Source of the DNA: an uncultured Phycisphaerales bacterium
GTDB lineage: Bacteria; Planctomycetota; Phycisphaerae; Tepidisphaerales; Tepidisphaeraceae
Length of the DNA: 64,000 bases
Assembly: GCA_963755915.1 (NCBI GenBank)
Contig: CAVWLP010000002.1
Coordinates: 4,000,001-4,064,000 of the forward strand
Reading direction: 5' to 3'
Shown here: piece after piece, positions 6,671 through 32,452 of the stretch
How positions within the stretch are numbered: the stretch's first letter is position 1
How the letters are laid out: each line of letters starts with the position of its first letter
Made by a program: the position numbers and the translations under genes
The notes under the pieces: generated by a model
The model's database searches: none
Told to the model about the DNA's origin: nothing
Seen by the model: only the letters and a program-made list of their open reading frames with translations

Positions 6671-6868
6671 CGTTTTAAATAACGCCAGACGTTGAAGTAA
6701 CAAAGCTGGCACGCGTGGCATAGAGCTTCCTAAGACGCCAGGAAAAACGGAATCTCCCGTTTTTGCACTTTTCGGAGGCTTGGCCATGCCCAAACTCGTC
6801 TGAAACGCAATTCCTTCTTATCGCCTCCACAAATTAAGTGGGAGAATCCAAACGACATTTGGTAGAAG

Positions 6869-7600
6869 GTGACGCGGCGGAAATCAATTATGAAACAGAA
6901 GAAATCACCGAAAGGTGGTGCCAGTCGAATTTCATCGCAGCTTTGGCGCGATGACGTCGAGCTATTTCAGCTCGTCGGCAGAGAATTATATACGCCGGTG
7001 GTGGGGGACATTCTCGACGGGCTGAAATATTACCATCAATTCCTGCCACAGCCGGTGCAGCCGATTCGTGAGGGGATGGTTGTGGTGGGGCGGGCGATGC
7101 CGGTGTTAATGATCGACGTTCATGGCCCGCAGAAAAAGCCCTTTGGTCTGATGACGCAAGCACTTGACGATCTGAAACCGGGCGAAGTCTACATCGCGGG
7201 GGGTGGCGACATGCGTTGTGCCTACTGGGGCGAATTGCTGACGGCGACGGCACGCACGCGCGGCGCAGTGGGCGCCGTGTTGGATGGTTTTCATCGGGAT
7301 ACGCCCCAGGTGCTTGGACAAAAATGGCCGGTGTTCAGCCGGGGACGGTATGCCCAGGATTCGTCGGTTCGGACGGCGGTGGCGGATTTTCGCTGTTCGA
7401 TCGAGATCGGCGGCGTCTGGATCGAGCCGGGGGATCTGGTGTTCGGCGATCTGGATGGGGTGGTGACGATTCCACGAGCGGTTGAAAAGGAGGTCATCAC
7501 CAGGGCGCTGGAAAAAGCGCGGGGCGAAAAAGTTGTCCGCAAAGCGATCGAAGGTGGGATGACCGCCACCGCGGCATTCAGGAAGTTTGGGATTCTTTGA
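6869..7600 (+). CDS. RraA/HMG-aldolase family protein
   Basis: [41 protein letters not shown]. Confidence 0.85.
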
Positions 7601-7612
7601 ACGGAAGGGCCG

Positions 7613-8740
7613 ATGAAAATCACCCGCTTTGAAACCTGGCGATGTCAGCGTAAGGAATCGTTGTTTGATTCAGCGCGGACGGGACGAAGCCCAATGAATT
7701 GGGACGTGGTGGTTTTGCAATTGAAAACGGATACGGGACTGATCGGCCACGCGACGGCGCTGGGGGCGCGCTCGAGCGTGGTAACGCAGGCATATCTTCA
7801 CGAGACGATCGCGCCGGTGGTGATGGGGCGTTCGCCGACAGAGCGCGAGGCGATTTGGCACGAGCTGTGGACGATCGACCGGCATCTGACCTTCTTCCCG
7901 GTTTATCTGCCGGGACCGGTCGATGTGGCATTGTGGGATATCGCGGCCAAGGATGCGGGATTGCCGCTCTATCAGTTCATCGGGGAATGCCGGACGAGCC
8001 TGCCGACGTACGCCAGCAGTTTGTTCATGCCTAGGACCGAGGATTATGTGAAGGAGATGCGAGCTTATCGGGAGCGTGGTTTCCCGGCATACAAGACGCA
8101 TCCCCCGGGTCCGTGGCGGAAAGACATGGAGATTCATCGCGCGCTGCGTGAAGCCTCGGGCGCCGATTATGTGCTGATGTCTGATCCGGTGGGGGAGTAT
8201 TCGCTGGAGGAAGCGATCCGCGTGGGGCGCGATCTGGAGAAGCTCGATTATCTCTGGTTTGAAGAACCCTTTCGCGATTTCGAATTGGCGAAATATGCCA
8301 AGCTTTGCGCGGCGCTCGATATTCCGATCGCGGGAACGGAAACGACGCGCGGGGGGCCGTGGGGCGTCGCGCAGGCCATTGCTTTCAACGCGGTCGATAT
8401 CGTTCGCGCGGATGTTTCGTGGAAGCCGGGCGTGACCGGCGCTTTGAAGATCGCCCATCTGGCCGAGGCAAACGGGATGCGCTGCGAGATCCATTGCACG
8501 ACGATGGGTTTCATGGACATGGCGAATTTGCACGTCAGTTGCGCGATCAAGAATTGCGAATATTTCGAGTTGCTGGTGCCGGAAGAACCGTTTCGGTTTC
8601 CGATGAAGGACAAATATCCGATTGACGCCGCCGGGATGGCGCATGTCCCGCAAAAACCTGGAATTGGCGTAGAACTGGACTGGGATGCGATCGATAAGAC
8701 CTGTGTTGAACATAAGGTCACTGAGCTGAAGTCAGTGTAA
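7613..8740 (+). CDS. Enolase superfamily (mandelate racemase-like) acid-sugar dehydratase
   Basis: VDVALWDIAAK, YKTH, MSD, WFEEP, AGTE, CEIH, PGIGVELD. Confidence 0.85.
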   Translation: MKITRFETWRCQRKESLFDSARTGRSPMNWDVVVLQLKTDTGLIGHATALGARSSVVTQAYLHETIAPVVMGRSPTEREAIWHELWTIDRHLTFFPVYLPGPVDVALWDIAAKDAGLPLYQFIGECRTSLPTYASSLFMPRTEDYVKEMRAYRERGFPAYKTHPPGPWRKDMEIHRALREASGADYVLMSDPVGEYSLEEAIRVGRDLEKLDYLWFEEPFRDFELAKYAKLCAALDIPIAGTETTRGGPWGVAQAIAFNAVDIVRADVSWKPGVTGALKIAHLAEANGMRCEIHCTTMGFMDMANLHVSCAIKNCEYFELLVPEEPFRFPMKDKYPIDAAGMAHVPQKPGIGVELDWDAIDKTCVEHKVTELKSV

Positions 8741-8768
8741 TCGCATATAGCCTGAAAAATGCGGAAGA

Positions 8769-8808
8769 CCCCCACCCTAACCCTCCCCCGGAGTACCAGG
8801 GGAGGGGA
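8769..8808. repeat. Palindromic REP-like element, family E (CCCTCACCC..CCCTCTCCC..GGGAGAGGG type)
   Basis: cccccaccctaaccctcccccggagtaccaggggagggga; related copies at 27358, 34813 and 42331. Confidence 0.75.
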
Positions 8809-8841
8809 AAAAGGGTGAGACGCGATTGACTTGGAGATGAA

Positions 8842-9168
8842 ATGAAGCCGCGCTGTTTTCAAATCCATGAGCGGGACAATGTTGCTACAATGATTGGGGA
8901 TGCCATGAATGGCGCGATCGAAGTGATTGGCAAAGACGCCGGAGAGATTGTTGCGGTGGAAAGAATTGCATCCGGGCAGAAGATCGCGCTGCGCGACATC
9001 GCCAAGGACGAGGCGATCGTGAAATTCGGCGTGCGCATCGGTCATGCGACAGCGCCCATCCGCCGTGGGGCATGGGTGCATTTGCACAACCTGGCCAGCG
9101 ATATTGACGAACGTTCCGGGACGCTGGATCTGCATTCCGGAGCGCCAACAGACACGCGATATGAATGA
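8842..9168 (+). CDS. SAF-domain small subunit of UxaA/GarD-type dehydratase
   Basis: [37 protein letters not shown]. Confidence 0.85.
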
Positions 9169-10367
9169 AGCGGTTTCAGTCTGGGAGGGATATGCACGGG
9201 CCGACGGCCGCAAGGGCATTCGCAACCTCGTGCTGATCGTTTACACGGTGGAGTGCGCAGTTTGTGGCCCATGCGATCGCGCAGGGGGAGAGCGACGTGC
9301 ACGTGATCGGGTTTTCGGGTTGCTACGACAATCAGTATGCGATTCGTCTGCTGCTTGCACTGGCGCGGCATCCAAATGTGGGGGCGGTTCTGTCGGTGGG
9401 GCTGGGATGTGAATACACGCAGCCGGAAAAGATCGCCGGGACGGTTCTCGAATCCGGCCGGCCAGCGGAGTGGTTCTTTATTCAAGAGGCGGGGGGGACG
9501 ACGAAGAGCATTGAGCGCGGAAAACAGGCGCTGGCGCGGTTGCGAAATCAGATTGCCACTGTGAAACGCGTGCCGATGACGCTAAGCGATTTAACGGTGG
9601 GATGTGAATGCGGCGGATCGGATGCCACTTCGGGATTGGCCGGTAATCCGGTGGTCGGCGTGTTTTTTGACAAGCTCGTTGATGCGGGTGGACGGGCGGT
9701 GTTCGAAGAGATTGTGGAGATGATCGGATTACGCGATATCCTCGCGGTCCGCGCGGCCAGCGAAGAGGCCCGGGCGCAGTTGACGGCGGCGTATGACAAG
9801 GCGGTGGCCTATTGCCAATCGGTGCGGCAGTTTTCCGCGTCGCCGGGCAATTTCGCGGGGGGGCTGACGACCATCGAGGAAAAGAGCATGGGTGCGTTCG
9901 CCAAGAGCGGCAGCCGGCCGATCCAGGGGGTGATAAAGGTCGGCGAACCTCCGCGAGGGCCGGGTCTTTGGATTATGGACAGCGTGCCCGATCCGCATTT
10001 CATGCAGTTTGGATATACCAATCCGAATGACACGGAAGGGATCATGGACCTGATCTCGTCGGGGGCGCAGATTGTTTTGTTCGTTACCGGGCGGGGGAGC
10101 GTTATCGGGAGCCCGATTGCGCCGTTGATCAAAATTACCGGCAACGACCAAACCTATCGGCGGATGATCGAGGACATGGATTTCAACGCCGGGCCTGTGC
10201 TGAATGGCGAATCTTCGCTGGAGAAAGCGGGTGCGGATTTGCTGTCGTTGGTTACGCGGGTGGCCGCAGGGCAGCCGACCAAACCGGAATCGTTGGGGCA
10301 TCGTGAATATTTTGTGATGTATAAGCATCAGGACACGCCGTCTCTTTTGGCGGGTTGTCGCGCGTAG
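9161..10367 (+). CDS. UxaA/GarD family acid-sugar dehydratase large subunit (frameshift near 9263)
   Basis: [68 protein letters not shown]. Confidence 0.85.
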
Positions 10368-10386
10368 GGAGATCAACCATTTCCAT

Positions 10387-11155
10387 ATGAATCCAAGCAA
10401 AAGCAGCTTTCGACTGGACGGACAGACAGCGCTGATTACCGGCGGCGGGACGGGATTGGGACTGGGCATCGCGCCTGCCTTGCGGCGCGGGCGCCAAAGT
10501 CGTATTGGTGGGGCGCAGGGAAAAGGAATTAACGCAGGCGGCGTCGAGCATCGGGTCGCAGGCGGCGTTCGTGGCACATGACATCACGCAACTGAATCGT
10601 GCGGGTGAATTGATTTCAGCGGCTGAAGAGGCCGCGGGCGCACCCGTGAACATCCTCATCAACAATGCGGGCATTCATCTGAAGAAATCGGCGACTGAAA
10701 CCAAGCCCGACGAATTCCAGGCGATATTGACCACGCACGTATGTGCCGCCCAGGCGCTGGTGGCGGCGGCATTGCCGGGCATGCTGGAGCGCGGGGAGGG
10801 AAACATCCTGTTTACCGCTTCGATGTCGGCGCTGATCGGCATGCCTTTGCTGGTGGCCTATTCGGCGGCCAAGAGTGCGTACCTTGGGATGGTTCGGGCC
10901 CTGTCGACGGAAGTGGCGGGGCGGGGCGTGCGCGTGAACGCGATCGCACCCGGCTGGATTGAATCGGCGATGCTGCGGCAGGCGCTCAGCGGGGATGCGG
11001 CGCGGATGAATCGGATCCTGCAACGCACGCCGATGGGGCGATTCGGCGAGCCGGAAGATATCGGGAACGCCGCCGTTTTTCTCTGCTCTCCCGCGGCGAA
11101 GTTCATCACGGGGGTGCTGCTTCCGGTGGATGGGGGCGCTAGCGTCGGATTTTGA
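10387..11155 (+). CDS. SDR family oxidoreductase (gluconate 5-dehydrogenase-like; frameshift near 10475)
   Basis: [31 protein letters not shown]. Confidence 0.85.
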
Positions 11156-12022
11156 CCGAATGAAGCGCCGTTTCCATGCACTCGCCGGCGATCCGAGCAT
11201 AGATAATTGCTTCGGCGTAGCGGTCGGATTCTTCGACGAGATCTCCGTCGGCAGCAGGAAATTGGCGGGCGTAATAGTGGGTGCTGGGGAGTAATTCCGG
11301 GGCGAAAATCAGGACGTCGCCGGGGGAAGCGTTTTTGAGGAATCCCTGAATTGATCGAGTCCAGAGTGTGCGGAAATGCTGGACGTAATCGACGGCTCCG
11401 CAGGCGCCGACGGCGACCTGTATCGAGCCTGGGTTTGCGATCCGGCCATGGATGAAACCGATGCGATCGAAAATGGGTTGCATAAATGCGAGCTTGCTTT
11501 CCCAATCGCCGTAGACCAATTCCTGTCCGCAATAGTAATGGCTGAAATCGCCGTTGAAGCGAATATCGAGAAATCGGCGGGTTATTTGGACAGTGCGCCA
11601 GAGGTCTTGGGTGATGGTGGCCCGGTGGGTTTCGATGAAGATGGGAAGCCGATGGCGATCAGAGCGCGCAAGACGGCGTCGATAAGGCGATCGACTTCGT
11701 CATCGTTCTCGAGGCCCCAGCCGACGTGGAGCGTGAGGCATTTATCGCCGCGGTCGGCGTGCTTGGCGGCGATGATATCGGCCTGGGCGGGTGTGCTGAC
11801 GCGATCTAAGCCGCAATACGGCAACGACAGCCCGCCGGCGGGAAGGGCGTCGCTGATCAGTTGCACGCCTTCAAATCCGTCGGCGGTGAGGCGCTGGTCC
11901 CGCTGGGGCCCCTCCAGACCGGGCCAGGTCGAATCCTCGCACAGGTCGACGAGGGTGCCGAGATTCAGATAGATGCGCAGCTTGGGCGGGTCATTTGAGC
12001 CGTCGTTCATGAGGCGAGACAT
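11139..12022 (-). CDS. Xylose-isomerase-like TIM-barrel protein (frameshifted)
   Basis: Fragments 11582-12094 and 11139-11519 join via [20 protein letters not shown] and FAPELL. Confidence 0.65.
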
Positions 12023-12030
12023 CGATTCTC

Positions 12031-12850
12031 CTAATCGCGAAGCCCGACCTGGCGCATCAAGCGATCGGTGGATTGATACGCCTCCTCGACCCATTCCACG
12101 ATCTTCTTTGGATCGGGCGAATATTCCAGTTCGATGGAGACCGAACCTTTAATTCCCAGTTCTTTGATTGCCTGGAGGTAGGGGGCGAATTTCACGACCC
12201 CTCGTCCGGGCGGAAGATCGCCGTGGACCTTGCCGTTGCAGTCGCTGATGTGAACGTGAATCGCCTTGCCTTTGAGTTTAACCAGTTCTTCCGGGCCGGC
12301 GTCGGCGAGCACGAGATGGCTTACGTCGATGTTGGCGCAGGCGCGGATGGTTGCACTCATTGACGAACCGCTCCATCTCGCCCACGCTGTTGAGAAGGCT
12401 GAGGCGGAAGGGTTCGAGTTCCAGGGCGATATCGATTCCTTTCCCGTCGGCGTAATCGCCGATGCGGCGGCAAGTCTCGATCGCCCAGCCCCATTGCGCT
12501 TCCGGGGGGATTACTTCGCGCTGCCAGATGTATTCTCCCAATACGAGCAGCACATTCCGGGCTTGCAGATCGGCGGCGAGATCGACGTGGCGCTTGACGC
12601 GATCGACGTGATACGCGCGCACCGGATCGTTGAAATCCACCAGTCCCGTGGAGACGACGACGCAGGAAACGATGGGGAGACCGGCTTTGCCGCACGTGTC
12701 GGCGATCAGCCGTTTTTCTTCCGGCGAAATCGTGGTCGCTTCGGCGAAAATATCGACGGTGTCGAACCCGATGCGGGCAATGTGCCGCAGCCCCGTCGCG
12801 GTGTCGACGCCGGCCTGGCCGAATGCGCTATTGATGATTCCAAGTTTCAC
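12031..12850 (-). CDS. Sugar phosphate isomerase/epimerase (AP endonuclease 2 TIM barrel; frameshift near 12335)
   Basis: GTG start after AGGAGG; IALELEPF, ANIDVSH, HVHISD, HGDLPPGRG, SIELE. Confidence 0.8.
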
Positions 12851-12873: not shown

Positions 12874-13956
12874 TTAAACGTCGAACTCGCTGAGCACGAC
12901 GAGGCGTCCCTCGGCGGCGCTGCGGTAGGCGGCTTCGACCAGGGCCATGGTTTGCAAGTTGTCGCGTCCGCTGACGGCCGGCTCGTCTTTGGTCTCCAGC
13001 GCGATGAGCAATTGGGCCATGGTGCCGGCGAAGGCGTCGGGAAACCAACTTCCGTGCAGGTTGGCCGTGGTGAAGGCGGTGTCGCCTCGCTTGGCGTAAC
13101 GAAGCGTGCTCGGCGAGGTGTAGGGGTCTTTGCACCAGCCGATGTCACCCATGGCCAGGCCGTCGGTTCCTTCGACGCGGTATCGAATGCCGATGTCGGC
13201 GGGACATCCTTCGCGTGCGGGACCGGTCCAGATGTCGTCGATGCCGATGCAGCGCATGCCGTCTTGATACTCGAGCGTGTAGACGCAGAGGCCGTCGCTA
13301 TGCGGGAATTTTGTTCGCGGATCGGGCCGGGTGCTGCAGAAAATCCGCGCGGGGTCGCCGAACCAGTAGCGCAGGCAATCGAGATGGTGTATGGACATGA
13401 TTCGCAGCGTCACCCAGCCCAGCTCCCTTTGCCAGTCCTGAAAGTGGGGAATGGCCCGCATGTCGATGGATGCGAAAACCGGCTTGCCGAGCACACCGGA
13501 CTTGATGAGCCGATTGGTTTCGCGCACGGACGGGTCGTAGCGCATGTTCTGGTTGACGGCCAGGACAATTCCCGCATCGCGGCAAAGATCGACGGCGCGT
13601 TGCGCTTCATCAAAATTCACGCCGAGCGGCTTCTGGGCGAGAATTCCTTTGGCAGTCCGTTTCTGGCAGGCCGTGCGGATCAAGGCAAATTGGGCCTGGG
13701 GCGGCACGGCGATGTCCAGCACTTCGATGGAAGCGTCGTTCAGCAATTGCTCATAGGTGTCGTGGACGGTGGCAATCTGGTGGCGCTGGGCGGCGCGAGT
13801 GGCGTTGGCCCGCGTGCGCGAGGCGATGACCACGGGATTCAGCCCCGCCTTCCGATAGGAACTGAGGTGACACTCGTTGACGATAAACCCGCTGCCGAGA
13901 ACGCCGATTCGGAAATCGCGTCGGTTCGGCATCGGCCAGTGAGTTGCGTCTTGCAT
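12874..13956 (-). CDS. Gfo/Idh/MocA family oxidoreductase
   Basis: IGVLGSGFI, AQKPL, NQNMRY, SIHHLD, ALVEAAYRS. Confidence 0.9.
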   Translation of the reverse strand: MQDATHWPMPNRRDFRIGVLGSGFIVNECHLSSYRKAGLNPVVIASRTRANATRAAQRHQIATVHDTYEQLLNDASIEVLDIAVPPQAQFALIRTACQKRTAKGILAQKPLGVNFDEAQRAVDLCRDAGIVLAVNQNMRYDPSVRETNRLIKSGVLGKPVFASIDMRAIPHFQDWQRELGWVTLRIMSIHHLDCLRYWFGDPARIFCSTRPDPRTKFPHSDGLCVYTLEYQDGMRCIGIDDIWTGPAREGCPADIGIRYRVEGTDGLAMGDIGWCKDPYTSPSTLRYAKRGDTAFTTANLHGSWFPDAFAGTMAQLLIALETKDEPAVSGRDNLQTMALVEAAYRSAAEGRLVVLSEFDV

Positions 13957-13964
13957 TGGGTCGC

Positions 13965-16267
13965 TCAGAATTCGTCAAACGCGATGCGACTGTCGGGCAC
14001 GCCCAGTCCTGCGAGCATCCGCATGCAGGCCTTGACCATCATGGGAGGGCCGCACAAGTAATATTCGATCCGGGTTGGATCAGCGTGTTGCTTCAGATAT
14101 TCGGTCTCCACAACCTCGTGAATGAAGCCGGCGTGGCCTGTCCAACGATCTTCGGGCAGCGGCGACGACAGGGCGAGATGGAATGTGAAGTTCGAGTGTG
14201 CCGCGGCGAGGGCCGCAAAGTAGTCATCGTAAAAGATTTCCTGGCGAGAGCGGGCTCCATACCAGAAGCCGATCCGACGCGCGGTGCCCTCGGTTTCGAG
14301 GTGATGGGAAAGATGTGCCCGCAGGGCGCCATGCCGGAGCCGCCGCCGATATAGATCATTTCGCGCTGCGTGGGCTTCACGTGGAAGTCGCCGAACGGAC
14401 CGATGGCAGTCACGATATCGCCGGGCTGAAGGCTGAACATATAGGCGGAACCGATGCCGGGCGGACAGTCCTGCCCAGGCGGAGGCGTGGCGATGCGGAC
14501 GTTGAATCGGAGGAGATTCGGCTCTGTCCTTGCGTTGCTGGCCAGCGAGTAGTTGTTGCGGCGCGGCGCACCGCCGGGATTGCGGGCGACGAGATCAAAT
14601 ACGTGCTGGCGTTCCCATACGTCCGCGTAGGGCTGCGGAATATCGAAACTTCGGAAAGGGATTTGTTCATACCCTGGAATATCGAACTGAAGATAATCGC
14701 CGGGCTGAAAATCGAGGGCATCGCAACCTGGAGCGGGCTCGAGGACCAGCTCGCGGATGAAAGTGGAGACGCTGCGGGTGCTGACGACCCGGAGGTTAAG
14801 AGTTTGTGACTGCCGGGCGGCGGCCGCGCCACCAGCACGAATAAGATTGATCCACACACGGCCGCCGCGTTCTTCGACCGGATAAGTGGCCAGTCCGCGG
14901 CAAACAGGCGGGCGGGCAGGCGAGCCGTCGGCAAGATTGAATCGCCCGTTATGCTTGGCGCATTCGATCTGAGTGCCTTTGACCAGCCCGGCGGACAGAT
15001 GCGTATTGCCGTGCGTGCACATGCCGTCCGTCGCATAGAGCTTGCCCTCGGCGTCGCGATAGAGGGCGTAGGTCTTTCGGGCATGGTCGAAGCGGATGAC
15101 ATCGGCGCGGTTCAGTTGGAGGGCGGGACAGACTTCCAACCATCCATCAGCGTCGGCCTGCTGCTCGGACGCCAAGCCGGGTTCGGCCGACCTTGACTTG
15201 GGTTCAGCCAGCTTGCGCTTGACGTAATAGGCGGGATCCCTGGTCTGCCGAAGCACCGCGGAAATGATTTCCCGCCAGGCCTGCAGGAGACCGTTGTATG
15301 GAGTCGGCATGTCGTCCTTTACGGCCTCGTGCAGTGCGGGCAGCGCATGGTAGGGGACCAGCGGGAACATGTGGTGCTCAACATGGTAGTTCATGTTCCA
15401 GTACAGATACCGGTGAATCGGGTTCATGTAGACGGTTCGACAGTTCAGCCGATGGTCGAGCACGTTTTCGGCCAGCCCGGCGTGCTGGGTAAGACCGTAG
15501 GTCATCAGGAGCCAAGTGCCGAACAGGGTGGGCAGGCCGATGAACATCAAGGGCAAAATGCTGCGCGTAACAACTGCAAGCACGATTACCGAAATGTAAA
15601 TTGCCAGATAAAGGCGTGCCCGCCAGAAAACCTTGTGGAACTCGCTGGCGGGGATGAAAGTTTTTTCAGCCGGGGACATCCTGCCGAACGTGTGCCGAAA
15701 GATGGCCGTGAAGTAGGGCGGGTAAAGCTTGACGCCGAGAAAGGTGAGAATAATTCCGCGCAAATTCGGCGGGCGTGGGACCGCGATCTCCGGGTCGCGC
15801 CCGACGATGATCGTATCGCTGTGGTGACGGGTATGACTCCAGCGCCAGACCGTCGATTCGCGAAGCACCATGAACGACGCGATCTCGTAGAGCGTGTTGT
15901 TCATCCAATCGGTCTTGAAAGCGGTGCCGTGACCGGATTCGTGCCATCGCGAATCGCTGGTCGATGCGTAGAGCACCGCGTACACCAGGTAGGGGAGCGC
16001 CGCCCAGGGTCTTGGCCAAAGCCGATACGTTAGCCAGCCGAAGCCGAAGATCAGCGCGAACCAGATGATCGTGTCGCGGATGGCGGGCCCGTCGCGGCGC
16101 TGGAGCAGCTTGCGCATGGTCGCGCGCGGTACGGGAGTTTGATACCAGTCTGCCTCTGCGAGTCCGCGCTCGATGGCGTGGGCCGTGGTCTCGCCGGTGA
16201 GGCTGTAGTCGAGTTTTTCCGGCGGACGAGTCAGTACGGCGACGCCGTGTTCCTGGTCAAGATCCAT
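13965..16267 (-). CDS. Fusion of MocD-like membrane di-iron desaturase/oxygenase, MocE-like Rieske ferredoxin and NqrF-like FAD/NAD reductase (frameshift near 14325)
   Basis: His boxes WHESGH, SHTRHH, YHVEHH; Rieske CTH..CAKH; reductase YSLAS, NVRIATPP, GPFGDF, IGGGSGMAP and, after the shift, YYLCGPPMM..IAFDEF stop. Confidence 0.85.
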
Positions 16268-16282: not shown

Positions 16283-17338
16283 TCAGAAAGTGGTAAACGC
16301 GTATTCGGTAACCTGCCTGCGGTTTTGGCCGGGGCGGAGAATAATGTTCCCAAGCTCGGGCACGTTTGCGCCGTCGGGATACCCCTCGCATTCCAGGCAT
16401 AGCCCGGCGAATTGTCCATAAGGCCGGCCCGATTTTCCAATCAACGTGCCGTCCAGGCGCACGCCGGTATAAAACTGGAGGCAATCCTCGGTGGTGCTTA
16501 CGGTCAATCTCCGGCCGCTAAGCGGCTCGGAGAGCCGGGCGCAGGTTCTTAATCTTGAATTGGGTGAAGGCTCGACGAAATAGAGGTCGCCGTGCCGGTC
16601 ATATAAGCTCGGAACGACATCGCCAAGCCGCCTGGGCTGGCGCAGGTCGGCGGGCCGGCCCGCGACCGATGTTTTGTCTCCAAGCAGCGTAAAGGCCGAG
16701 TCCACCGCGGCGGTATGGCTGGAGAATATCTGCAGCTCATGTCCGTCGATTGTGCCGGATCCCTCGCCGGCGAGATTGAAATAAGAATGCTGCGTAAGGC
16801 TGAAAGGGGTGGCGCGGTCGGCCGTGGCTTCGACTTCGACGACCAGGCGATTGCCCGGGGTGACGGTATACGTCACGGACACGGAGAGGTTGCCGGGATA
16901 GCCGGCCTCGCCATCGGGGCTGACGCGGAAAAGACGGAGGGAGGCGGCGCCGTCCGTCCGACGGACCGGGGCTGCGTTCCAGACTTGTTTGTCGAATCCC
17001 CTGCTTCCGCCATGCAAATGATTCGGGGGATCGTTGCGCTCAAGGTTGTAGGTGGTACCGTCGATCTCGAATCGTGCCCGCGAAATCCTGCCGGCGACGC
17101 GCCCCGCCATGGCGCCGAAAAACGGGTGCGGCTCGAGGTAACTGCTCAACCGCTCGAACCCCAGCACGACGTCATCCAACTGGCCATGGCGATCGGGCGC
17201 GAACAGGTGCGTGATGATGCCCCCCAGGGTGATTACTCGCGCACGGAGGCCGCCCGCACTCTGCAAGGTGAAAGAATCAATTTGCTCTCCCGTGGGCAAA
17301 GACCCCAACTCACATTTGTCGAGCAATTCCGCGGGCAT
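16283..17338 (-). CDS. galM: Aldose 1-epimerase (mutarotase)
   Basis: GRVAGRI, NHLHGG, GYPG, LTQHSYFNL, LQFYTG, GLCLECE. Confidence 0.9.
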   Translation of the reverse strand: MPAELLDKCELGSLPTGEQIDSFTLQSAGGLRARVITLGGIITHLFAPDRHGQLDDVVLGFERLSSYLEPHPFFGAMAGRVAGRISRARFEIDGTTYNLERNDPPNHLHGGSRGFDKQVWNAAPVRRTDGAASLRLFRVSPDGEAGYPGNLSVSVTYTVTPGNRLVVEVEATADRATPFSLTQHSYFNLAGEGSGTIDGHELQIFSSHTAAVDSAFTLLGDKTSVAGRPADLRQPRRLGDVVPSLYDRHGDLYFVEPSPNSRLRTCARLSEPLSGRRLTVSTTEDCLQFYTGVRLDGTLIGKSGRPYGQFAGLCLECEGYPDGANVPELGNIILRPGQNRRQVTEYAFTTF

Positions 17339-17429: not shown

Positions 17430-20400
17430 TCACCGGCAATTCGTCGAGTGTTTCCTGCGCTGCCGGCGTGACAACGCGGTGACAGTGCCCAGAGCGAGCA
17501 GTCCGATGGATGCCGGTTCCGGCACCGCGGCGATCGTCGGCGCTGGCAGGCCGTTGGCCGCCGCGAAGGCATCCAGCGCGGCCACGTCTGCGGGCGTAAC
17601 CGTCACGGCAGCGCCGCTATCGCCCTGGCCGAAGTTCGCCGCCAAGGCGCTGAAGTCGGAGCCGTTGACCGAACTGCCATACAGGAAGTTCCCCTGGTCC
17701 CAGTTGGTGACGCCGAGGCCGAAGTTGGCGGCCAGGATCGAGAAGTCGGAGCCGTTGACGGTGCCGTCGAGATTGGCGTCGCCGACCAGCGTGTACTTCA
17801 ATTCGATTTCGCCACTGGTGAGGTTTTTCACGGCCCCGGTTTTGTCGTTTCCGTCGGCCCAGCCGATGCTGTAGGTCAAGCCGTTGGTTTTGGTCTGGGC
17901 GGCGGACGAGATGATTCCAGAGGTCCCGTTCCAGGCGCCGTTGTTGAAGCCGGATTTGAGGTAACCCAGGATGGTGGAGACCGGGTCGGTGGCGCCGTAG
18001 TCGATGATCACGTGGTTATTGGAGATGTCCAGAACGCTGTTGGCGGCAATGGTCAGCGAGGAGACGTTGATATTGCTGACGGGATTGGTGGCGGTCCAGC
18101 CGCTGCTGGCAGTCGTGTTGCTCGCAAGCACGACGTTTCCACCGTTGATGGCCAGGCTGCTGGCGGTCAGACCGACGCCGAGGGTCAGGGTGCTGGTGCC
18201 GGTCTTGGTGAATCCGCCGGTGGCGACGATGAGCCCGCCGCCGGTGATGGAGTAATTGCCCGAGCTGTTCACCAGCACTGAGGCGGGGCTGACGGTGCTG
18301 CTGAGGGTCACAAAGTAGTGACCGGCGTTGGTGTCGTTGAAGGTGACGGCATCGCCGTTTGCATAGGTTGTGGCGGCGGAGCCGCTGTTCCAGTTCTTAT
18401 TGTTGTTGATGTCCCAGGTTTGGCCATCATCCGGCGTGCTGGAACCGAGGTTGTCCCAGTAGACCGAGGCCGGTCCGGTGGCGACAACCACCAAGTCGAT
18501 GAATCCGATCTGGGCGGTGGTGCTGAGGGAGTAAGTATCGCCGGCCTGGGTGGGGAGGACGAAATTGGCGAGGGTGGGCGTTCCAAAGGAACCTTCGAAG
18601 AGCTCGTAGTCGCCGGAGGCAGTGGGATTGGTTCCGAAGGCGAGGTGGGTGCCGGAGGCGACGGAGAGGGTTCCACCGCCAAGGATGTCGATGAGATCGC
18701 CGGTGTAAGAGTTGGAGACGACGGGAGCGCCGAGGTCGAAGTCGAAAGTGGTGTTGCTGGTGGTGGTGATGGCGCCGGCGTTGAGGAGGCCGATGGATCC
18801 AACCCCGCCGGGGGCGATGGCGTTAGCGCCGGAGCCGGCGACGACAGTGCCCGTGACGGTTCCGGCCGCGGTGCTGGCGAGCGTTCCGCCGTTGAGGGCG
18901 ACGTTGCCGGTTCCGGTGGCGGAGCCGACGGAGCCATTGCCGGCGGAGAGGGTGCCAGCGTTGACAGTGGTGCCGCCGGAATAGGTGTTGTTACCAGCGA
19001 GGACCCAGGTTCCCGGTCCGGTTTTGTTGACGCTGAGCTTTCCGGTGGCGGAGTCGGTGAGTTGGGCGGAGAGGGTGTTCAGGCCGGTGTTGGTGCCGGT
19101 GAGGGTGAGGGTGCGGTTTTGATTGGTGAAGGTGAGGTTGTCGCCAATGCTGGTGGTGCTGATGTTGTTGTTGATGTAGAAGCCGTTGCTGGAGACGCCG
19201 ACGATCGTTGAATTTGCGGGGAAGGCGCCTAGGGAATCGTTGACGGTCATGCCGATCGCCAGAAGATTCGAGTTGAAACCCGAGGGCAGCGGGATGAAGT
19301 TGAATGGAGGGCCGTTGTCGGGATCCTCCGCGATCGTATCGTTGGTCATCTGCCCCTGCTCGACCTGAGCGATCGCGCCGGTGTTGGTGAAATCAACAGC
19401 GCCGGTGCCGGAGGCGTCGAGCGTGGCGCCAACGGGAGTCATGGTGAAAAGGCGATCGGTGGTAGATCCGGCGCCGGTGTATTGGAGGACACCCCCGCTG
19501 ATGACGAGGTTGGCGGCGGAGTTTGAGGCGGAGCCGATTCCGCTGCCGGTCATGGCGCCGCCGTTGGCCAGTTGGTTGACGGAGAGGGTCGTGGTTTCAA
19601 AAGCGCCCTGGGGCGCGGTGAAATCGTTGTTGGCGGCGCGGGTTTGATCGGTGAGGACGTAAACACCCTGGATGGTGGTGACGCCGCCGTAATTGTTGGA
19701 GCCCTCAAGCTGGACGGCTCCGCCGTTGGTGACGACCAGTGCGTTGCCGGCGCCCGCGATCGCATTGCCACCGGAATTGGGGATCGTGAGTGTGCCACCG
19801 CCGCCAAGGCGATAGGTGCTGTTGGCGGGGGTAATGGTTCCGGTGTAAGTGACGCCGGCATTGTCGGAGCCGACGCTCATGCTGGCGAGATTGGCAAGGG
19901 TGCCGGCGGTGAAATTGAGAGTCGCGGCGGCGTCGAGAGTTCCCAGAGCGAGGGCGCCGGTGTTGGCGGTGCTGGAGGCGGCTATGAGTCCGAGGAAGGT
20001 GGAGTCGGTGGTGCCCGCGGTTGCAGCCGCATTTGAGTCGAGTGCGACGGCGCCGCCGGCGTTGACGGTGATAGAGGAGGTTCCCGCGCTGCCGCCGGTC
20101 TGTTTGCCATAGGAGCCGGGGGCGGCGAATTCGAGCAAACCACCGTCGACGGTGGTCGCGCCGTTGAAGGTGCTGGTGGTTCCGTCTAGGAGAACGACGC
20201 CGGTGCCGTTTTTGGTTAACGGCGCGCTGACGGAAGTATCATCGCTGTAGCTGTTGAAGATGCCCCCGTTGACGACGGTCATGCCGGAACCGTCAAACAC
20301 CCACGTTCTGCTGGGACTGTTAGTGGTAGGTTGGGCATAGATATTTCCGTTGATGGTGAGGGTCTTGCCAGCGGGAAGGAGATTGACGATCTCGCGGTTG

Positions 20401-21539
20401 GTGGTTTGATACACGTACCCGTTGATGGCGAGGGAGTGCTGCCCCTCGATGGTAAGGAACTGTGTGACATCGATGCCGTTGTTGATTTCGATGGAATCGT
20501 TGGCGGATTCGAGGTTATAGCCGAATTCATTGGCCGAGCCACCGAGGCGGACTTCGCCCTGTGATTGGACGGCGGAGCCCGCGGGCTGGATTCCGAAGGC
20601 CTGGTCGTTACCGACGATGACGGTGGCCATGTTGAGCGTGGTGATTCCGGTGTAGGTGCTGGCGCCGTTGAGCTCGATGGTCGGGGTGATGGCCGGATAG
20701 ACGCTGGTCTTGGTGGGGTTGCTGTAACCAAGAGAGACATCGCTGTCGCCGACGGCGCCGTCGGCGATGGCGCCGTTGATGATGGTGGTGCTGCCGGTTA
20801 CGCCGTCGATCGTGAAGGACTGAGCGGTTGCAGAGGCGGCATTGGTAATGGTGATGGGGCCGTTGATCGTCAACGTATTGCTGCCGGACATGAGGTTGGC
20901 GATGGCGGCCGAGATGCCGCTGGCTTGCGAGATGGGGCCATTGAGAATGACGCTGTTGGTGCTGGAGGGGTCGATGGCGAGGCTGGTGAATATTGCGGTT
21001 TGCACAGGGCCGATAGGAGGAACGCTGTTGACAACGCCGGTGGAGTTGAGGTCGTAGTTGCCATCGGACCCGCTACGGCTGTTCAGAGTTTGAGTCGAAA
21101 AGCTGTTTTGATCGAGTTCGATGGGAGCGCTGACGATGTTGGTGCTGCCTGGCGCGCCAAGACTAAAGATGTCGGCATAGGCGCCGGCGGCTGGAGTACC
21201 GCCGTCGAAGACGATTAATCCCCCGCCGCTGTTGCTGTTGCCCACGTCGGTGGTGACCGGACTGCTGGTGGAACCCAGTTTCATGTCGTTCACGTAGTAC
21301 GTGCCGGTGGGGATATCAATCGAAAGATTGGAAGAGAGCGCGACGTTGAGATTGGCGGAATCTCCAGCTCCGACGGCGCCGCTTGGGGAGCCTGTAGGGC
21401 TCCAATCGGCCGTGTTGGTCCAAGTCTGAACTCCACCGCTGAGATCCGTCCAGGTATAGCTGGTGGCAGCGTGAACGGCAGGACCGACAAAAGAGACAGC
21501 CGCGGCGGCGGCTAATACGACTCGCTTCGACTTCCGCAT
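17430..21539 (-). CDS. Large secreted PEP-CTERM protein with autotransporter-associated beta-strand repeats and dockerin-like domain
   Basis: Signal peptide; LTKNGTGVVLL, VNKTGPGTWVLAGNNTYSGGTTVNAGTL; GDANLDGTVNGSDF; VPEP + TM + RRQRRK. Confidence 0.9.
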   Translation of the reverse strand: MRKSKRVVLAAAAAVSFVGPAVHAATSYTWTDLSGGVQTWTNTADWSPTGSPSGAVGAGDSANLNVALSSNLSIDIPTGTYYVNDMKLGSTSSPVTTDVGNSNSGGGLIVFDGGTPAAGAYADIFSLGAPGSTNIVSAPIELDQNSFSTQTLNSRSGSDGNYDLNSTGVVNSVPPIGPVQTAIFTSLAIDPSSTNSVILNGPISQASGISAAIANLMSGSNTLTINGPITITNAASATAQSFTIDGVTGSTTIINGAIADGAVGDSDVSLGYSNPTKTSVYPAITPTIELNGASTYTGITTLNMATVIVGNDQAFGIQPAGSAVQSQGEVRLGGSANEFGYNLESANDSIEINNGIDVTQFLTIEGQHSLAINGYVYQTTNREIVNLLPAGKTLTINGNIYAQPTTNSPSRTWVFDGSGMTVVNGGIFNSYSDDTSVSAPLTKNGTGVVLLDGTTSTFNGATTVDGGLLEFAAPGSYGKQTGGSAGTSSITVNAGGAVALDSNAAATAGTTDSTFLGLIAASSTANTGALALGTLDAAATLNFTAGTLANLASMSVGSDNAGVTYTGTITPANSTYRLGGGGTLTIPNSGGNAIAGAGNALVVTNGGAVQLEGSNNYGGVTTIQGVYVLTDQTRAANNDFTAPQGAFETTTLSVNQLANGGAMTGSGIGSASNSAANLVISGGVLQYTGAGSTTDRLFTMTPVGATLDASGTGAVDFTNTGAIAQVEQGQMTNDTIAEDPDNGPPFNFIPLPSGFNSNLLAIGMTVNDSLGAFPANSTIVGVSSNGFYINNNISTTSIGDNLTFTNQNRTLTLTGTNTGLNTLSAQLTDSATGKLSVNKTGPGTWVLAGNNTYSGGTTVNAGTLSAGNGSVGSATGTGNVALNGGTLASTAAGTVTGTVVAGSGANAIAPGGVGSIGLLNAGAITTTSNTTFDFDLGAPVVSNSYTGDLIDILGGGTLSVASGTHLAFGTNPTASGDYELFEGSFGTPTLANFVLPTQAGDTYSLSTTAQIGFIDLVVVATGPASVYWDNLGSSTPDDGQTWDINNNKNWNSGSAATTYANGDAVTFNDTNAGHYFVTLSSTVSPASVLVNSSGNYSITGGGLIVATGGFTKTGTSTLTLGVGLTASSLAINGGNVVLASNTTASSGWTATNPVSNINVSSLTIAANSVLDISNNHVIIDYGATDPVSTILGYLKSGFNNGAWNGTSGIISSAAQTKTNGLTYSIGWADGNDKTGAVKNLTSGEIELKYTLVGDANLDGTVNGSDFSILAANFGLGVTNWDQGNFLYGSSVNGSDFSALAANFGQGDSGAAVTVTPADVAALDAFAAANGLPAPTIAAVPEPASIGLLALGTVTALSRRQRRKHSTNCR

Positions 21540-25183: not shown

Positions 25184-26274
25184 TCAGTTGATGCGCGTCG
25201 GATCAATGACGACGTGGGCGATGCTTTTGCGTTTCCAGGTGTAGGTGATGTGGACGAGGCCATCGGAGGTTTGGATGACGGCGGGATAGGAAAACTGGGC
25301 ATCTTCATTTTCGAGAACGATGACGGGCTTCCAGGTTTTGCCGTCGGGGGAGATGGCGATGTTGAGAGGGGAGCGTTTTGATGAGGAATGGTTGTAGACG
25401 AGGAGGGATCGGCCATCTTTGAGCTGAACGGCGTCGATGCCGCTGTTGGGGTTTGGGAGATCGGTGGGGCTGGGGTCGTCCCAGGTTTTGCCGTTGTCGG
25501 TGGACCAGCCCTGGTAGATGTTTCCCTCGCGGTTTCGGCAGAGGTATTGGATGACGCCCTTGCCGTGATCGAGAAGGGTGGGCTGAATGAGGCGGACGTC
25601 TTTTCCATCGTTGAGGGAATCGGTTTTTGTCCAGGATTGGCCGTTGTCGGTGGAGGTTTCGAAGTGGATTTGAGCGCCGTTGTCTTCGGTGCTGGAGGGG
25701 GAGAGGATTGAGCCGTCGGAGAGGAGGATGGGTTTGTCCTTGGCGGGGCCGATGATTCCATCGGGGAGACGCTTCGGCGCAGACCAGGTGACGCCGTCAT
25801 CGGCGGAGGTGGTCAACATTCCCCACCATTTTCCGGGCTGGGGCCGACTTTGTAGAAAAGGAGGAGGAGGCCGTCTTTGGGCTGGAAGAGGACGGGGTTC
25901 CAGCAGGGAAGGCGGGGAGCGTCTGGTTGAATGCCGGTGGCGACTTCGACGAGGGGGGACCAATGCGAGCCGACAAGGCGGGAGACCCAGATGCCGACAT
26001 CGGGCGCGCGTTCGTGAGTGCCGCCGAAAAATGCGGCGACGAGTTCAGATTTTGGACCGGATTTTGTTTCGACGATCGTGGAGGCGTGGCAGGAGGGGAA
26101 GGGGGCGGTCTTGAAAATGAACTCGGAGAGAAGAACCGCGCTGGACGGCTGCGGAGAAATGCCTGGAGCATCGGGCAGGGTTGTGGGCGGTATTGCTGGC
26201 TTGGTTGTTTGCGCAAAGGCGCAGACTGCGGCCAAGAGTGAAAGAGAGGCGAAGGTAATCAGCAGGTATTTCAT
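25184..26274 (-). CDS. Secreted BNR/sialidase-like (GH33-like) hydrolase (frameshift near 25835)
   Basis: Signal peptide MKYLLITF; CHASTIVE, FFGGTHE, CWNPVL, Asp-boxes SxDxGxTW, IQP, PNPNSG, RSPL, FSYP. Resembles the KDO-hydrolase domain of B. thetaiotaomicron BT1013 (from recall). Confidence 0.8.
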
Positions 26275-26485
26275 GTGCGATCCGCGGTGGTTAATGATCG
26301 GGGAGGATGATGTCGGACTCAACTCATTGGGGGGGAGGCGAAATCCTGGTCGAGATTGTCGGCGCGGAGGGTGATCGCTGAAAAGAGAAGAAGGGCGAGT
26401 GCGATAAATCCGGCGTATCTCACGTTTGCCATCCGCCACACTTGAGGGGCCAAGCTGGCTGCAGTGTAACGGGCGGCAAAGGGGG

Positions 26486-26534
26486 ATTCGTTGGCGTTTA
26501 GCGTAATAGTGTTGCGATGTGGCGCAAGCGGGGC
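26486..26534. repeat. Dispersed repeat family D, short copy
   Basis: attcgttggcgtttagcgtaatagtgttgcgatgtggcgca; near-identical starts at 29766 and 31055. Confidence 0.8.
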
Positions 26535-26536
26535 AT

Positions 26537-26574
26537 CCCCACGGCAGCGCCGTGGGCGTTCAGGGAGCAAACTA
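26537..26574. repeat. REP-like palindrome family A (CCCACGG-N5-CCGTGGGCGTTC)
   Basis: ccccacggcagcgccgtgggcgttcagggagcaaact; copies at 32538 (interrupted), 47021 and 58950. Confidence 0.85.
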
Positions 26575-27093
26575 ACGGACTGGGTCTGGGATTAGATCGA
26601 GCCAGCGGAGTGCGAGGTCCTGGTCGTGATGATCGGGTTTGGGAGGCTGGTTCGGGACGAAGCGGGCGGCGGCTTGGAGGAGAAGCTGGGCGGCGCGCAT
26701 GCGGTTTTTGTCGGCGGGGTCCTGGAGGAAATCGGCGAGGACGGAGGCGGCCCTGGTGGCGATGGTCTGGCAGCGTTCGACGGCGAAGTCATGGCGATCG
26801 GCGCGGGCGTCGGCGAGAGCCTTCTGGAAAGCGTCGTCCTGAGTTTTCCATCGCCAAAGGGTTTTGCGGTTGAGATCGAGGGCTTTGGCGATCTGCGACC
26901 AACGGGCGCCGGAAAGGGCGAGCTCGATGGCGCGGCACTGGGTGTTGGAGAGCTGGTAATTGGGGTCGATGTCCCCGAATGTCCCGTTTTCCCCCGATTC
27001 TGCGAAATTTTTCGTCTCTTCCGGGGCGGGCTCCCGGGGGGCAGAAGGAATGGGATCATGATCGGGCGAGGTGGGTGCGGGATCCGGGGTCAT
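26572..27093 (-). CDS. Helix-turn-helix protein (phage small-terminase-like HTH)
   Basis: LSNTQCRAIELALSG..WSQIAKALDLNRKTLWRWK..FQKAL. Confidence 0.6.
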   Translation of the reverse strand: MTPDPAPTSPDHDPIPSAPREPAPEETKNFAESGENGTFGDIDPNYQLSNTQCRAIELALSGARWSQIAKALDLNRKTLWRWKTQDDAFQKALADARADRHDFAVERCQTIATRAASVLADFLQDPADKNRMRAAQLLLQAAARFVPNQPPKPDHHDQDLALRWLDLIPDPVR

Positions 27094-27122
27094 GGGAACT
27101 CCGTGGGGAAGATTGCCGATTG

Positions 27123-27397: not shown

Positions 27398-27432
27398 TGC
27401 GGGTGCCCTGGTGGGTGGTTCCGGAGGTTGTT

Positions 27433-32415: not shown

Positions 32416-32452
32416 TTCCGGCGCGGTTAGACATTTTTTTTTGAACATTGAT

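Follow-up and report, generated by a model that had tools for sequence, protein, structure and literature searches.

The window analyzed here, a stretch of 64,000 nucleotides from an uncultured Phycisphaerales bacterium, carries on its minus strand a gene for a single-chain oxygenase (13965–16267, exactly the span that the first-pass annotation had given it). The gene is 2303 nt long as assembled and 2304 nt (767 codons plus stop) with one base supplied by read-derived contigs; in the uncorrected assembly, its open reading frame runs from 14093 to 16267 and encodes 724 aa. The chain opens with an FA_desaturase-type membrane di-iron domain (15299–16006; aa 88–323), which the Pfam scan matched to PF00487 at E 2e-32 and 113.4 bits against a cut-off of 29.7. 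This is followed by a MocE-like Rieske [2Fe-2S] domain (14879–15142; aa 376–463; PF00355, E 5.8e-16, 58.6 bits against 20.3) and by an NqrF-type reductase module. The module consists of an FAD-binding part (14324–14794; about aa 492–648) and an NADH-binding tail (13965–14323; aa 649–767 of the restored protein) that contains CGPPMM, ends in ...DEF and the stop, and lies out of frame in the assembly. In the 724-aa frame, the same scan matched FAD_binding_6 weakly (E 0.0084, under the cut-off) and found no cytochrome P450 haem domain.

The motifs expected of each part are present. The three His boxes are HESGH (aa 109–113, nt 15929–15943), HTRHH (aa 145–149, nt 15821–15835), and HVEHH (aa 295–299, nt 15371–15385). 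The Rieske ligands C417, H419, C436, and H439 sit in CTH (aa 417–419) and CAKH (aa 436–439), at nt 14951–15019, and the FNR motifs are RNNYS (aa 570–574, nt 14546–14560) and GGGSGMAP (aa 641–648, nt 14324–14347). Across 12 of 12 full-length homologs, none of these motif residues varied. The two domain junctions (about aa 355–375 and 474–492) both lie in the unbroken stretch upstream of the frame break, so the earlier claim that the frameshift did not create them holds. The reductase module is specifically NqrF-type, with E 5e-80 to solved NqrF FAD domains versus about 1e-14 for other FNR-family proteins, which upholds the NqrF-like flavin module first proposed for this fusion. Its best structure matches were 7qty_A, the NqrF FAD domain that gave the former value, and full-length NqrF (7xk3_F, 8e-72, residues 136–406). 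For residues 1–370, a profile search returned no sequence match among solved structures. Hydrophobic hairpins occur at about aa 62–104 and 213–257, with hydropathy peaks near aa 75, 181, and 234. An AlphaFold2 model of a 767-aa homolog, made from a 12-row alignment, reached pLDDT 53 and pTM 0.39, with low-confidence helices at 60–104 and 207–274.

The fusion is not peculiar to this genome. All of the 120 best homologs are 757–799 aa long and have the same three domains, and the read-derived contigs agree; together with the Pfam domains and the motifs, this confirms the single three-part chain that was originally described and answers the domain-architecture search suggested as its check. Hosts of the fused family are Verrucomicrobiota, Acidobacteriota, and Phycisphaerae, in hundreds of genomes, and the best 80 of 551 genomic matches are 66–74% identical and span three phyla. 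One sister record names its copy mocD. No account of the fused enzyme, or of a sugar O-demethylase other than a P450, turned up in the literature searched, and the accessible portion of a paper on pinitol (PMC9788770) has no bearing on the fused oxygenase.

Among systems in which the parts are separate proteins, the rhizobial mocDE(F)-like operons are closest, and they provide the precedent for the function proposed below. The O-demethylation role of MocDEF in rhizopine catabolism is a genetic model; MocD has been studied genetically in R. leguminosarum and S. meliloti L5-30. A desaturase and a MocE-family ferredoxin encoded on R. etli p42e are, respectively, 56.8% identical over 338 aa and 50% identical over 98 aa to the fused protein, which supports the MocD and MocE likeness (57% and 50%) remarked on at the outset, as measured on this pair. 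Relatives occur in 288 plasmid records at identities up to 58%, and a tree of desaturase domains places the fused clade and the rhizobial clade within one larger clade (98/92). Against the MocE-family model TIGR02377, the 767-aa homolog P0001 scored 112.5 bits, below the cut-off of 136.15. The setting of the rhizobial operons is also of the sugar or cyclitol type, as it is here: a LacI regulator precedes the R. etli p42e pair, a paralogous locus lies beside sugar ABC transporters, and a gene annotated as "TIM barrel protein" is found beside the R. etli split relatives. However, the rhizobial parts are separate proteins in hosts of another kind, and the reductase after MocE is an HcaD/AndAa-type flavoprotein, non-homologous to the NqrF-type FNR module that stands in its stead in the fused chain; none of the 80 fused loci contains a relative of that flavoprotein. 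Partners differ as well. In three of three rhizobial loci viewed, a PanB-like hydroxymethyltransferase gene comes after the desaturase–ferredoxin pair, where it would fit a released C1 unit, whereas a mutarotase and a TIM barrel (the c3 family described below) are the partners of the fused gene. A class II aldolase partner was considered for the fused form and rejected, since PanB-like and HpcH-like genes are absent from all 80 fused loci. In the available part of a study of P. syringae, xylA2 is placed beside mocDEF (PMC5132102).

In the window, the neighbors on the same strand are an aldose 1-epimerase (a GalM-like mutarotase; 16283–17338), 15 nt upstream of the oxygenase, and a Gfo/Idh/MocA-family oxidoreductase (12874–13956), 8 nt downstream. 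Further downstream are a xylose-isomerase-like TIM barrel (PF01261; 12031–12850, in two frames in the assembly and with its start near 12850 estimated) and a protein of about 300 aa (11139–12094, with one frame break near nt 11650) from a family without a Pfam assignment, here called c3. No MocR- or MocB-like gene was seen around the oxygenase, nor was a formaldehyde-detoxifying gene seen next to the fused gene. We surveyed the genes within 8 kb in 80 related loci. Aldose 1-epimerase was the most conserved same-strand neighbor (31 of 80 loci), and among the 76 loci whose upstream DNA was long enough, 26 have it as the immediately preceding open reading frame on the same strand, across three phyla. 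Downstream, the partner that recurred most constantly was a xylose-isomerase-like TIM barrel (c3 in 16 of 80 loci, in each directly downstream of the oxygenase; c16 in 4; PF01261 in 6). The c3 family was modeled with a xylose-isomerase-like TIM-barrel fold, and its profile matched AsbF alone among solved structures (E 0.092); NCBIfam and Pfam gave no match for c3, c16, or an 836-aa neighbor. An AraC regulator was present in 33 of 80 loci and an MFS sugar transporter in 10, while alpha- and beta-galactosidases, an RG-I lyase, and a RhaT-type transporter each occurred in single loci. Nine Acidobacteriaceae loci have instead a TPR protein and a multi-pass membrane protein beside the oxygenase and no sugar genes in view.

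From this neighborhood, which in 13 of 80 loci also includes corrinoid methyltransferase genes and so a methyl-group context, and from the MocDEF precedent, we infer a sugar or cyclitol O-demethylase. That the substrate is soluble and sugar-like is quite probable, and O-demethylation of any regiochemistry is rather likely, while hydroxylation of the methyl group with release of formaldehyde could go either way. Taken as a whole, the reading of the protein as an intact, self-sufficient MocD-type membrane monooxygenase that acts as an NADH/O2-driven sugar methyl-ether demethylase is, in our judgment, an even bet. NADH would reduce the FAD of the C-terminal NqrF-type module, and electrons would move singly via the fused Rieske [2Fe-2S] cluster to the N-terminal His-box di-iron center, which is expected to activate O2 in the membrane domain. 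The desaturase His boxes, the Rieske domain, and the reductase would all face the cytoplasm. The substrate would most likely be an imported O-methylated aldose; once its methyl ether is hydroxylated, the unstable hemiacetal so formed would collapse to formaldehyde and the free sugar. The latter could then be processed by enzymes co-transcribed with the oxygenase, namely the mutarotase, the Gfo/Idh/MocA dehydrogenase, and the TIM-barrel proteins. Several points count against this reading: this class of His-box di-iron enzymes usually takes lipophilic substrates, the nine Acidobacteriaceae loci show no sugar genes, formaldehyde-detoxifying, PanB-like, and HpcH-like genes were not seen beside the fused gene, and the MtaB-type neighbors of some loci suggest that the C1 product is methanol, not formaldehyde.

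The first-pass annotation had pointed to 2-O-methyl-fucose and 2-O-methyl-xylose of RG-II as substrates, and the survey did not support this. RG-II-type hydrolases (GH95, GH127, and BT_1020-like) do occur in the window, 9 to 47 kb from the oxygenase. However, relatives of RG-II hydrolases were found within 8 kb in none of the 80 loci, and we rejected the link given that relatives of the window's GH95, GH127, BT_1020-like, BNR_2, and GH2 genes are missing from all 80. Relatives of its RraA, MR_MLE, and UxaA genes were likewise absent from 80 of 80. The mutarotase beside the oxygenase belongs to the GalM (Aldose_epim) family, which presumably fits sugars of the Gal/Glc/Xyl/Ara type better than L-fucose.

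The alternative that fares best keeps the enzyme and substrate class and changes the regiochemistry. The di-iron center would hydroxylate the methoxy-bearing ring carbon. The resulting hemiketal would break down to a keto-sugar and methanol; the keto-sugar would then go to the TIM-barrel and Gfo/Idh/MocA partners for reworking, and an MtaB/MtaC/MtaA-like corrinoid set, where present, would capture the methanol. We consider this unlikely, although several observations speak for it. Corrinoid methyltransferase genes occur within 8 kb in 13 of 80 loci (URO-D/MtaA-like in 13, RACo in 7, B12-binding in 6, DUF1638 in 6), and MtaB-family genes, with Pfam matches as strong as E 4e-167 and 6e-158, share the array or locus in 5 of 80. 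In one locus, a single co-directional array comprises B12-binding, MtaB, URO-D, DUF1638, RACo, epimerase, oxygenase, and c3 genes. The TIM barrel that is so constant downstream recurs beside split relatives, and Gfo/Idh/MocA enzymes often act on keto-sugars. Yet corrinoid genes are lacking within 8 kb in 67 of 80 loci, MtaB is absent from the organism's own genome (81% complete), pectin methyl esters could be an alternative source of methanol, and the rhizobial PanB-like partner suits formaldehyde better. To our knowledge, all oxidative O-demethylases attack the methyl group. It is a doubtful, if broader, proposition that the fused family is a general aerobic sugar methyl-ether demethylase of soil and freshwater Verrucomicrobiota, Acidobacteriota, and Planctomycetota that works by ring-carbon hydroxylation, with methanol passing to co-encoded MtaB-type methyltransferases and the TIM barrel repairing the keto-sugar.

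It is also improbable that the enzyme carries out another sugar or cyclitol oxidation, such as C6-methyl hydroxylation of a 6-deoxyhexose, cleavage of a lactyl, carboxyethyl, or glyceryl ether, or attack on a methyl glycoside with release of one anomer. The sugar gene context would be the same as for a demethylase; in one locus, the RhaT-family transporter adjoins the epimerase, and if the product leaves as a single anomer, close coupling to a mutarotase would make sense. On the other hand, the methyl-transfer neighbors and the MocDEF precedent favor a methyl ether, and we know of no pathway that requires such alternative steps. It is very unlikely that the protein desaturates or hydroxylates lipids, supplying its own electrons, and lies beside sugar genes by coincidence. 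Pfam membership in FA_desaturase and the hydrophobic hairpins are compatible with it, and the 49 of 80 loci without an epimerase within 8 kb speak for it as they count against the demethylase. However, a same-strand epimerase directly upstream in three phyla, at the frequency given above, is far above chance for a gene with one or a few copies per genome. In addition, the nearest relatives lie in sugar-type operons under LacI or AraC control, and two other FA_desaturase genes in the genome could serve lipids.

The frame break raises a different question, namely whether a genuine 1-nt deletion has made the gene a pseudogene in this organism. The assembly as given does contain the frameshift. 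One base is missing from the G run at plus-strand 14324–14326, and the reading frame decays past GGGSGMAP, while another minus-strand frame, 13968–14357, carries on (LRAHLSHHLETEG...CGPPMM...IAFDEF*) and matches PF00175 NAD_binding_1 at E 4.8e-10. Two read-derived contigs span the break (runs X1 and X3; X2 and X4 do not cover the site, and X5–X14 contain just small shares of the window), and in both an extra G stands between plus-strand A14323 and GGG 14324–14326 (CCCC on the coding strand), with no other differences. The restored protein of 767 aa is colinear with P0001, which is of the same length, 93% identical, and reads straight across the break, and the two gene pieces abut at profile positions 647/646. 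A pseudogene is therefore highly improbable: two runs supply the base, the break sits in a homopolymer run, neither half shows any further damage, and the window contains at least four more genes that appear split in the same manner. The break is most likely an assembly error.

Finally, many sources name relatives of this protein as subunit F of Na+-NQR, a name explained by the equivalog model TIGR01941, on which the last 277 aa of P0001 reach 310.4 bits, over the cut-off of 295. The assignment is almost certainly wrong and was ruled out by the absence of the parts that define NqrF at its N-terminus: the match spans profile positions 131–403 only, positions 1–130 (the membrane helix and plant-type [2Fe-2S] domain) are unmatched and replaced by desaturase and Rieske domains, neither nqrA nor a full nqrF (or any second match above the TIGR01941 cut-off) was found in the organism's own genome (81% complete), and no nqr genes occur among the neighbors in the window or in the 80 related loci. 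Given that the model names an oxygenase above its cut-off, metabolic reconstructions can wrongly infer a Na+-pumping NADH:quinone reductase.

If the demethylase reading is correct, its significance lies in the fact that methyl ethers block the catabolism of sugars. A second, non-haem, membrane-bound carbohydrate O-demethylase would fill a gap in the mineralization of methylated plant, algal, and microbial glycans in soil and freshwater. A single chain that needs NADH and O2 alone would also be an attractive biocatalyst and could be used as a model of how electrons reach His-box di-iron enzymes.

Several known systems share individual features with this oxygenase. NqrF has the same order of membrane part, Fe-S domain, FAD, and NADH modules, but it carries an N-terminal helix and a plant-type [2Fe-2S] domain that the present protein lacks, and the latter has its module joined to an oxygenase instead. 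AlkB–rubredoxin fusions and the xylene monooxygenase XylM/XylA fall in the same Pfam superfamily: they are membrane-bound di-iron hydroxylases with His boxes, and their electron carrier is either fused to them or dedicated to them; however, their carriers are rubredoxin or a plant-type ferredoxin–FNR, and their substrates are hydrocarbons. Alkylglycerol monooxygenase, a membrane di-iron enzyme that cleaves ethers via hydroxylation of the carbon beside the oxygen, provides a precedent for O-dealkylation by this class, although it differs in family (fatty-acid hydroxylase), substrate (lipid), and cofactor (tetrahydrobiopterin) and is eukaryotic. In the literature searched, the sole carbohydrate O-demethylase is a P450 system of marine bacteria, which acts on 6-O-methyl-D-galactose (PMC6292453). 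As far as the accessible text of that report describes it, the system removes a sugar methyl ether oxidatively with NAD(P)H electrons delivered via an Fe-S carrier, as proposed here, but it does so with a soluble haem enzyme that has separate redox partners and is unrelated in fold and sequence to the fused oxygenase (PMC6292453).

The oxygenase is encoded on the minus strand at 13965-16267, with a main open reading frame (14093..16267, minus strand) of 724 aa. In a Pfam scan, this frame matched FA_desaturase at residues 88-323 (E 2e-32) and Rieske at 376-463 (E 5.8e-16), along with a weak FAD_binding_6 match under the cut-off (E 0.0084). The three His boxes (residues 109-113, 145-149, and 295-299), the Rieske ligands (CxH at 417-419, CxxH at 436-439), and the FNR motif GGGSGMAP (641-648) were found where the first-pass annotation had located them, and a further FNR motif, RNNYS, lies at 570-574. 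Immediately past GGGSGMAP the reading frame becomes meaningless, and the NADH-binding tail, ending ...CGPPMM...IAFDEF, is read from a second minus-strand frame at 13968-14357, with a stop at 13965. Because both domain junctions precede this break by a clear distance, it did not create the fusion, as had been argued earlier. When the whole source genome was searched by profile, the two gene pieces met at profile positions 647/646, and no second fused copy was found.

Whether the break marks a pseudogene or an assembly error was addressed by comparison with homologs and reads. On the plus strand, it falls between A14323 and GGG at 14324-14326, and one extra C in the coding-strand CCC run would restore a frame like that of the closest homolog (P0001; 767 aa, 93% identical), which is uninterrupted across the site (GGGSGMAP-LRAHLSHHLE). 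Contigs from four public soil-metagenome runs of one study (X1-X4) were aligned to 13900-14800; X2 and X4 had no coverage of the site. Both bridging contigs (X1 record 2, 653 nt; X3 record 9, 247 nt) differ from the window solely by a G inserted after 14323. Only X3 is partly independent, since X1 may be the sample from which the window came. At least five other genes of the window likewise appear split over two frames, including a short-chain dehydrogenase (SDR; 10387-11155, plus strand), two TIM-barrel genes (11139-12094 and 12031-12850, both minus), a BNR_2 sialidase-like gene (25187-26559, minus), and a GH2 gene (50036-52500, plus); the oxygenase site is the one among them compared with reads. 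In a genome of 3 contigs and 81% completeness, such split genes suggest an error-prone consensus. We therefore regard the oxygenase break as very probably a consensus error rather than the mark of a pseudogene, and the gene as most likely intact.

The fusion is not peculiar to this genome. A word-indexed protein search scored 8000 sequences, 3675 of them at E <= 0.001; the best 120 were all 757-799 aa long and 70-93% identical. All 120 combine PF00487, PF00355, and PF00175, so that a domain-architecture check bears out the fusion, which is also backed by the colinearity of P0001 through the break. Database names for these 120 are "NqrF" or "MocE subfamily Rieske protein". Species-representative genomes yielded at least 551 relatives among at least 596 pattern matches. 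The best 80 of these were 66-74% identical, and by record title 42 were from Verrucomicrobiota, 33 from Acidobacteriota, and 4 from Phycisphaerae or Tepidisphaeraceae; 76 of the 80 align through residue 767, and the other four end at contig edges. At 50% clustering, a single three-domain representative (760 aa) appeared among the 150 best listed, beside two-domain desaturase–Rieske forms (~456-522 aa) and single-domain forms (~320-370 aa). In a tree of the desaturase domain (42 hand-picked rows, fragments excluded), three-domain forms made up one clade (99/94) that also took in a row of 389 aa and another on a long branch. Its sister was a two-domain form (98/99), and rhizobial MocD-like proteins fell within the same larger clade (98/92). 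This tree is compatible with what may have been one origin of the full fusion. A literature search, in which subscription journals were mostly not covered, turned up nothing published on the fused enzyme or on any sugar demethylase other than a P450. A P450 carbohydrate demethylase is described in PMC6292453. The family is widespread, unstudied, and systematically misnamed.

The surrounding genes bear on what the enzyme acts upon. In the window, a minus-strand array runs from an aldose 1-epimerase (16283-17338, minus; 15-nt gap) through the oxygenase to a Gfo/Idh/MocA oxidoreductase (12874-13956, minus; 8-nt gap), a PF01261 TIM barrel (12031-12850, minus), and a member (11139-12094, minus) of c3, a Pfam-less family of ~300 aa. 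Directly upstream of the epimerase is a 1369-aa protein (17430-21539, minus) that carries passenger-associated-transport repeats (PATR) and, at its C terminus, a PEP-CTERM sorting signal. The predicted c3 model (pLDDT 89, pTM 0.90) has a xylose-isomerase-like TIM-barrel fold; by structure it comes nearest to ketose 3-epimerases, IolE, the isomerase Art22, and a C-glycoside deglycosidase (TM 0.52-0.60, 9-14% identity). We surveyed the best 80 of at least 551 related loci over +/- 8 kb with crude ORF calling. Within four ORFs of the fused gene, these 80 loci carried an AraC regulator in 33, an epimerase in 30 (31 by tblastn), c3 in 16, an MFS sugar transporter in 10, a URO-D-like gene in 9, an unnamed multi-pass membrane protein in 9, and a PF01261 TIM barrel in 6. 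Over the whole +/- 8 kb, relatives of the window's Gfo-type gene occurred in 4 of the 80. Among the 76 loci with sufficient upstream DNA, 26 have the epimerase as the immediate same-strand upstream ORF, and 49 of the 80 loci had no epimerase within +/- 8 kb. The sugar context is thus not universal. For example, nine Acidobacteriaceae loci (L041, L045, L050-L052, L057, L058, L062, and L083) have a conserved, Pfam-less, opposite-strand multi-pass membrane protein (~330 aa) 3' of the fused gene and often a TPR protein 5' of it, with no sugar genes in view. Divergent from the window's operon is a plus-strand sugar-acid set (6866-11155) of an RraA-like aldolase, an enolase-superfamily dehydratase, a UxaA/GD_AH-type dehydratase, and an SDR. 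This set may process the demethylated aldose further by an oxidative, non-phosphorylative route, and is not conserved in the best 80 of at least 551 loci.

Substrates from RG-II, such as 2-O-methyl-fucose, had been proposed in the first-pass annotation. RG-II-type genes do occur at 25187-34864 and 50036-64000, namely GH95 (60732-63242), GH127 (63125-64000), a BT_1020-like propeller with a sialidase-like CBM (58983-60728), two GH2, BNR_2, and a GH43-like gene; interspersed with these are an XylR/AraC-type regulator and a DUF6785/DUF6784 membrane protein. The RG-II-type enzymes are 9-47 kb from the oxygenase gene, and relatives of them were found in none of the best 80 of at least 551 loci. The link is local to the window and no property of the family. 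The earlier interpretation is partly supported, for the architecture and the reductase exchange but not for RG-II. Since the adjacent mutarotase is GalM-type, 2-O-methyl-fucose is also less apt than methylated Gal, Glc, Xyl, or Ara; fucose mutarotases belong to a different family.

The close coupling to a mutarotase of the GalM type, the neighbouring sugar regulators and transporters, the galactosidases in a few loci, and the nearby methyl-transfer systems point to a soluble, imported aldose with a removable methyl group, and O-demethylation of a sugar is plausible. By ordinary chemistry, the methyl group would be hydroxylated to give formaldehyde and the free sugar. In the chief rival reading, hydroxylation would fall on the ring carbon and yield methanol plus a keto-sugar; the MtaB-type genes among the neighbours and the constant TIM-barrel partner leave room for it. 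Genes of corrinoid methyltransferase sets occur within +/- 8 kb in 13 of the best 80 of at least 551 loci (URO-D/MtaA-like in 13, RACo in 7, B12-binding in 6, DUF1638 in 6, MtaB-like in 5, homocysteine-S-methyltransferase-like in 2). One locus (L009) has a co-directional array of B12-binding, MtaB (E 4e-167), URO-D, DUF1638, RACo, epimerase, oxygenase, and c3. MtaB was found neither in the window nor in the 81%-complete source genome. MtaB/MtaC/MtaA-type systems have chiefly been described in methanogens and acetogens; here, full MtaB/MtaC/MtaA-like sets with RACo and DUF1638 were seen in Verrucomicrobial and Acidobacteriaceae genomes (L009 900-6763; L078 12661-18285; also L036, L046, L048, and L079). 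Their methyl donor may be methanol or a methyl ether. On the side of formaldehyde release, aldolases of the HpcH/HpaI type can accept formaldehyde. Elsewhere in the source genome is another MocD-like gene, of one domain only and with 35% identity to the fused gene (G000:C3 ~1509000-1511200; L096 6121-9208). The assembly splits this gene too, and a divergent AraC regulator precedes it. An HpcH/HpaI aldolase follows it, with a D-lyxose isomerase farther along; this aldolase would suit a formaldehyde-type C1 unit, as would the PanB-like partner of rhizobial loci.

Methyl removal by MocDEF was reportedly described by Bahar and colleagues. According to PMC10107442, rhizopine catabolism requires mocC and mocDEF, the mocD promoter is rhizopine-inducible, and Bahar et al. 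1998 is cited with "ferredoxin oxygenase complex" in its title; the word "demethyl" is absent from the paper. Elsewhere, mocDEF of woody-host Pseudomonas syringae adjoins a second xylose isomerase gene without mocCABR, its function being called unclear (PMC5132102), and mocDEF homologs are induced by root exudates (PMC5789663). Among families, the Rieske part of the fused protein comes nearest to MocE, whose cut-off of 136 it misses with 112.5 bits, and a sequence search found no solved structure matching residues 1-370. Relatives of the desaturase domain occur on 288 plasmid records, mostly Rhizobium and Sinorhizobium, at up to 58% identity. In the three inspected, a LacI regulator is followed by a divergent "fatty acid desaturase family protein" and a "MocE family 2Fe-2S ferredoxin", then in two by an FAD-dependent reductase; sugar ABC transporters adjoin one. 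Compared with an R. etli pair, the window's domains show 56.8% (338 aa) and 50% (98 aa) identity, and in one R. etli record the copy is annotated "mocD". All three loci have a divergent PanB-like gene (ketopantoate hydroxymethyltransferase family; L084 11713-12528, L085 12054-12854, L091 10454-11281) 3' of the oxygenase genes. It scores below panB cut-offs, is absent from the best 80 of at least 551 fused loci, and is possibly a sink for the released C1 unit.

The C-terminal module belongs specifically with NqrF (E 5e-80 to a solved NqrF FAD domain; next FNR-family proteins ~1e-14), and the name "NqrF" arises because the TIGR01941 score (310.4 bits) exceeds its cut-off of 295. That match begins only at profile position 131, so the membrane helix and plant-type ferredoxin domain of NqrF are missing; with no nqrA and no other nqrF match over cut-off in the 81%-complete source genome, we reject identity as NqrF. 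NqrF is ordered membrane helix, Fe-S, FAD, NADH, and the oxygenase is ordered membrane di-iron, Rieske, FAD, NADH. As this order mirrors that of NqrF, electrons would pass from NADH through FAD, [2Fe-2S], and di-iron to O2, all on the cytoplasmic face, with the topology predicted from hydropathy. Rhizobial mocDEF-like systems use an AndAa/HcaD-type reductase, while the fused oxygenase has an NqrF-type module. Because relatives of the rhizobial reductase are absent from all of the best 80 of at least 551 fused loci, the fusion is more than a joining of MocD, MocE, and MocF. The reductase was exchanged for an NqrF-type module, in keeping with the recruitment of the NqrF flavin domain supposed earlier, and the gene represents a fused form of an already known type of three-component oxygenase.
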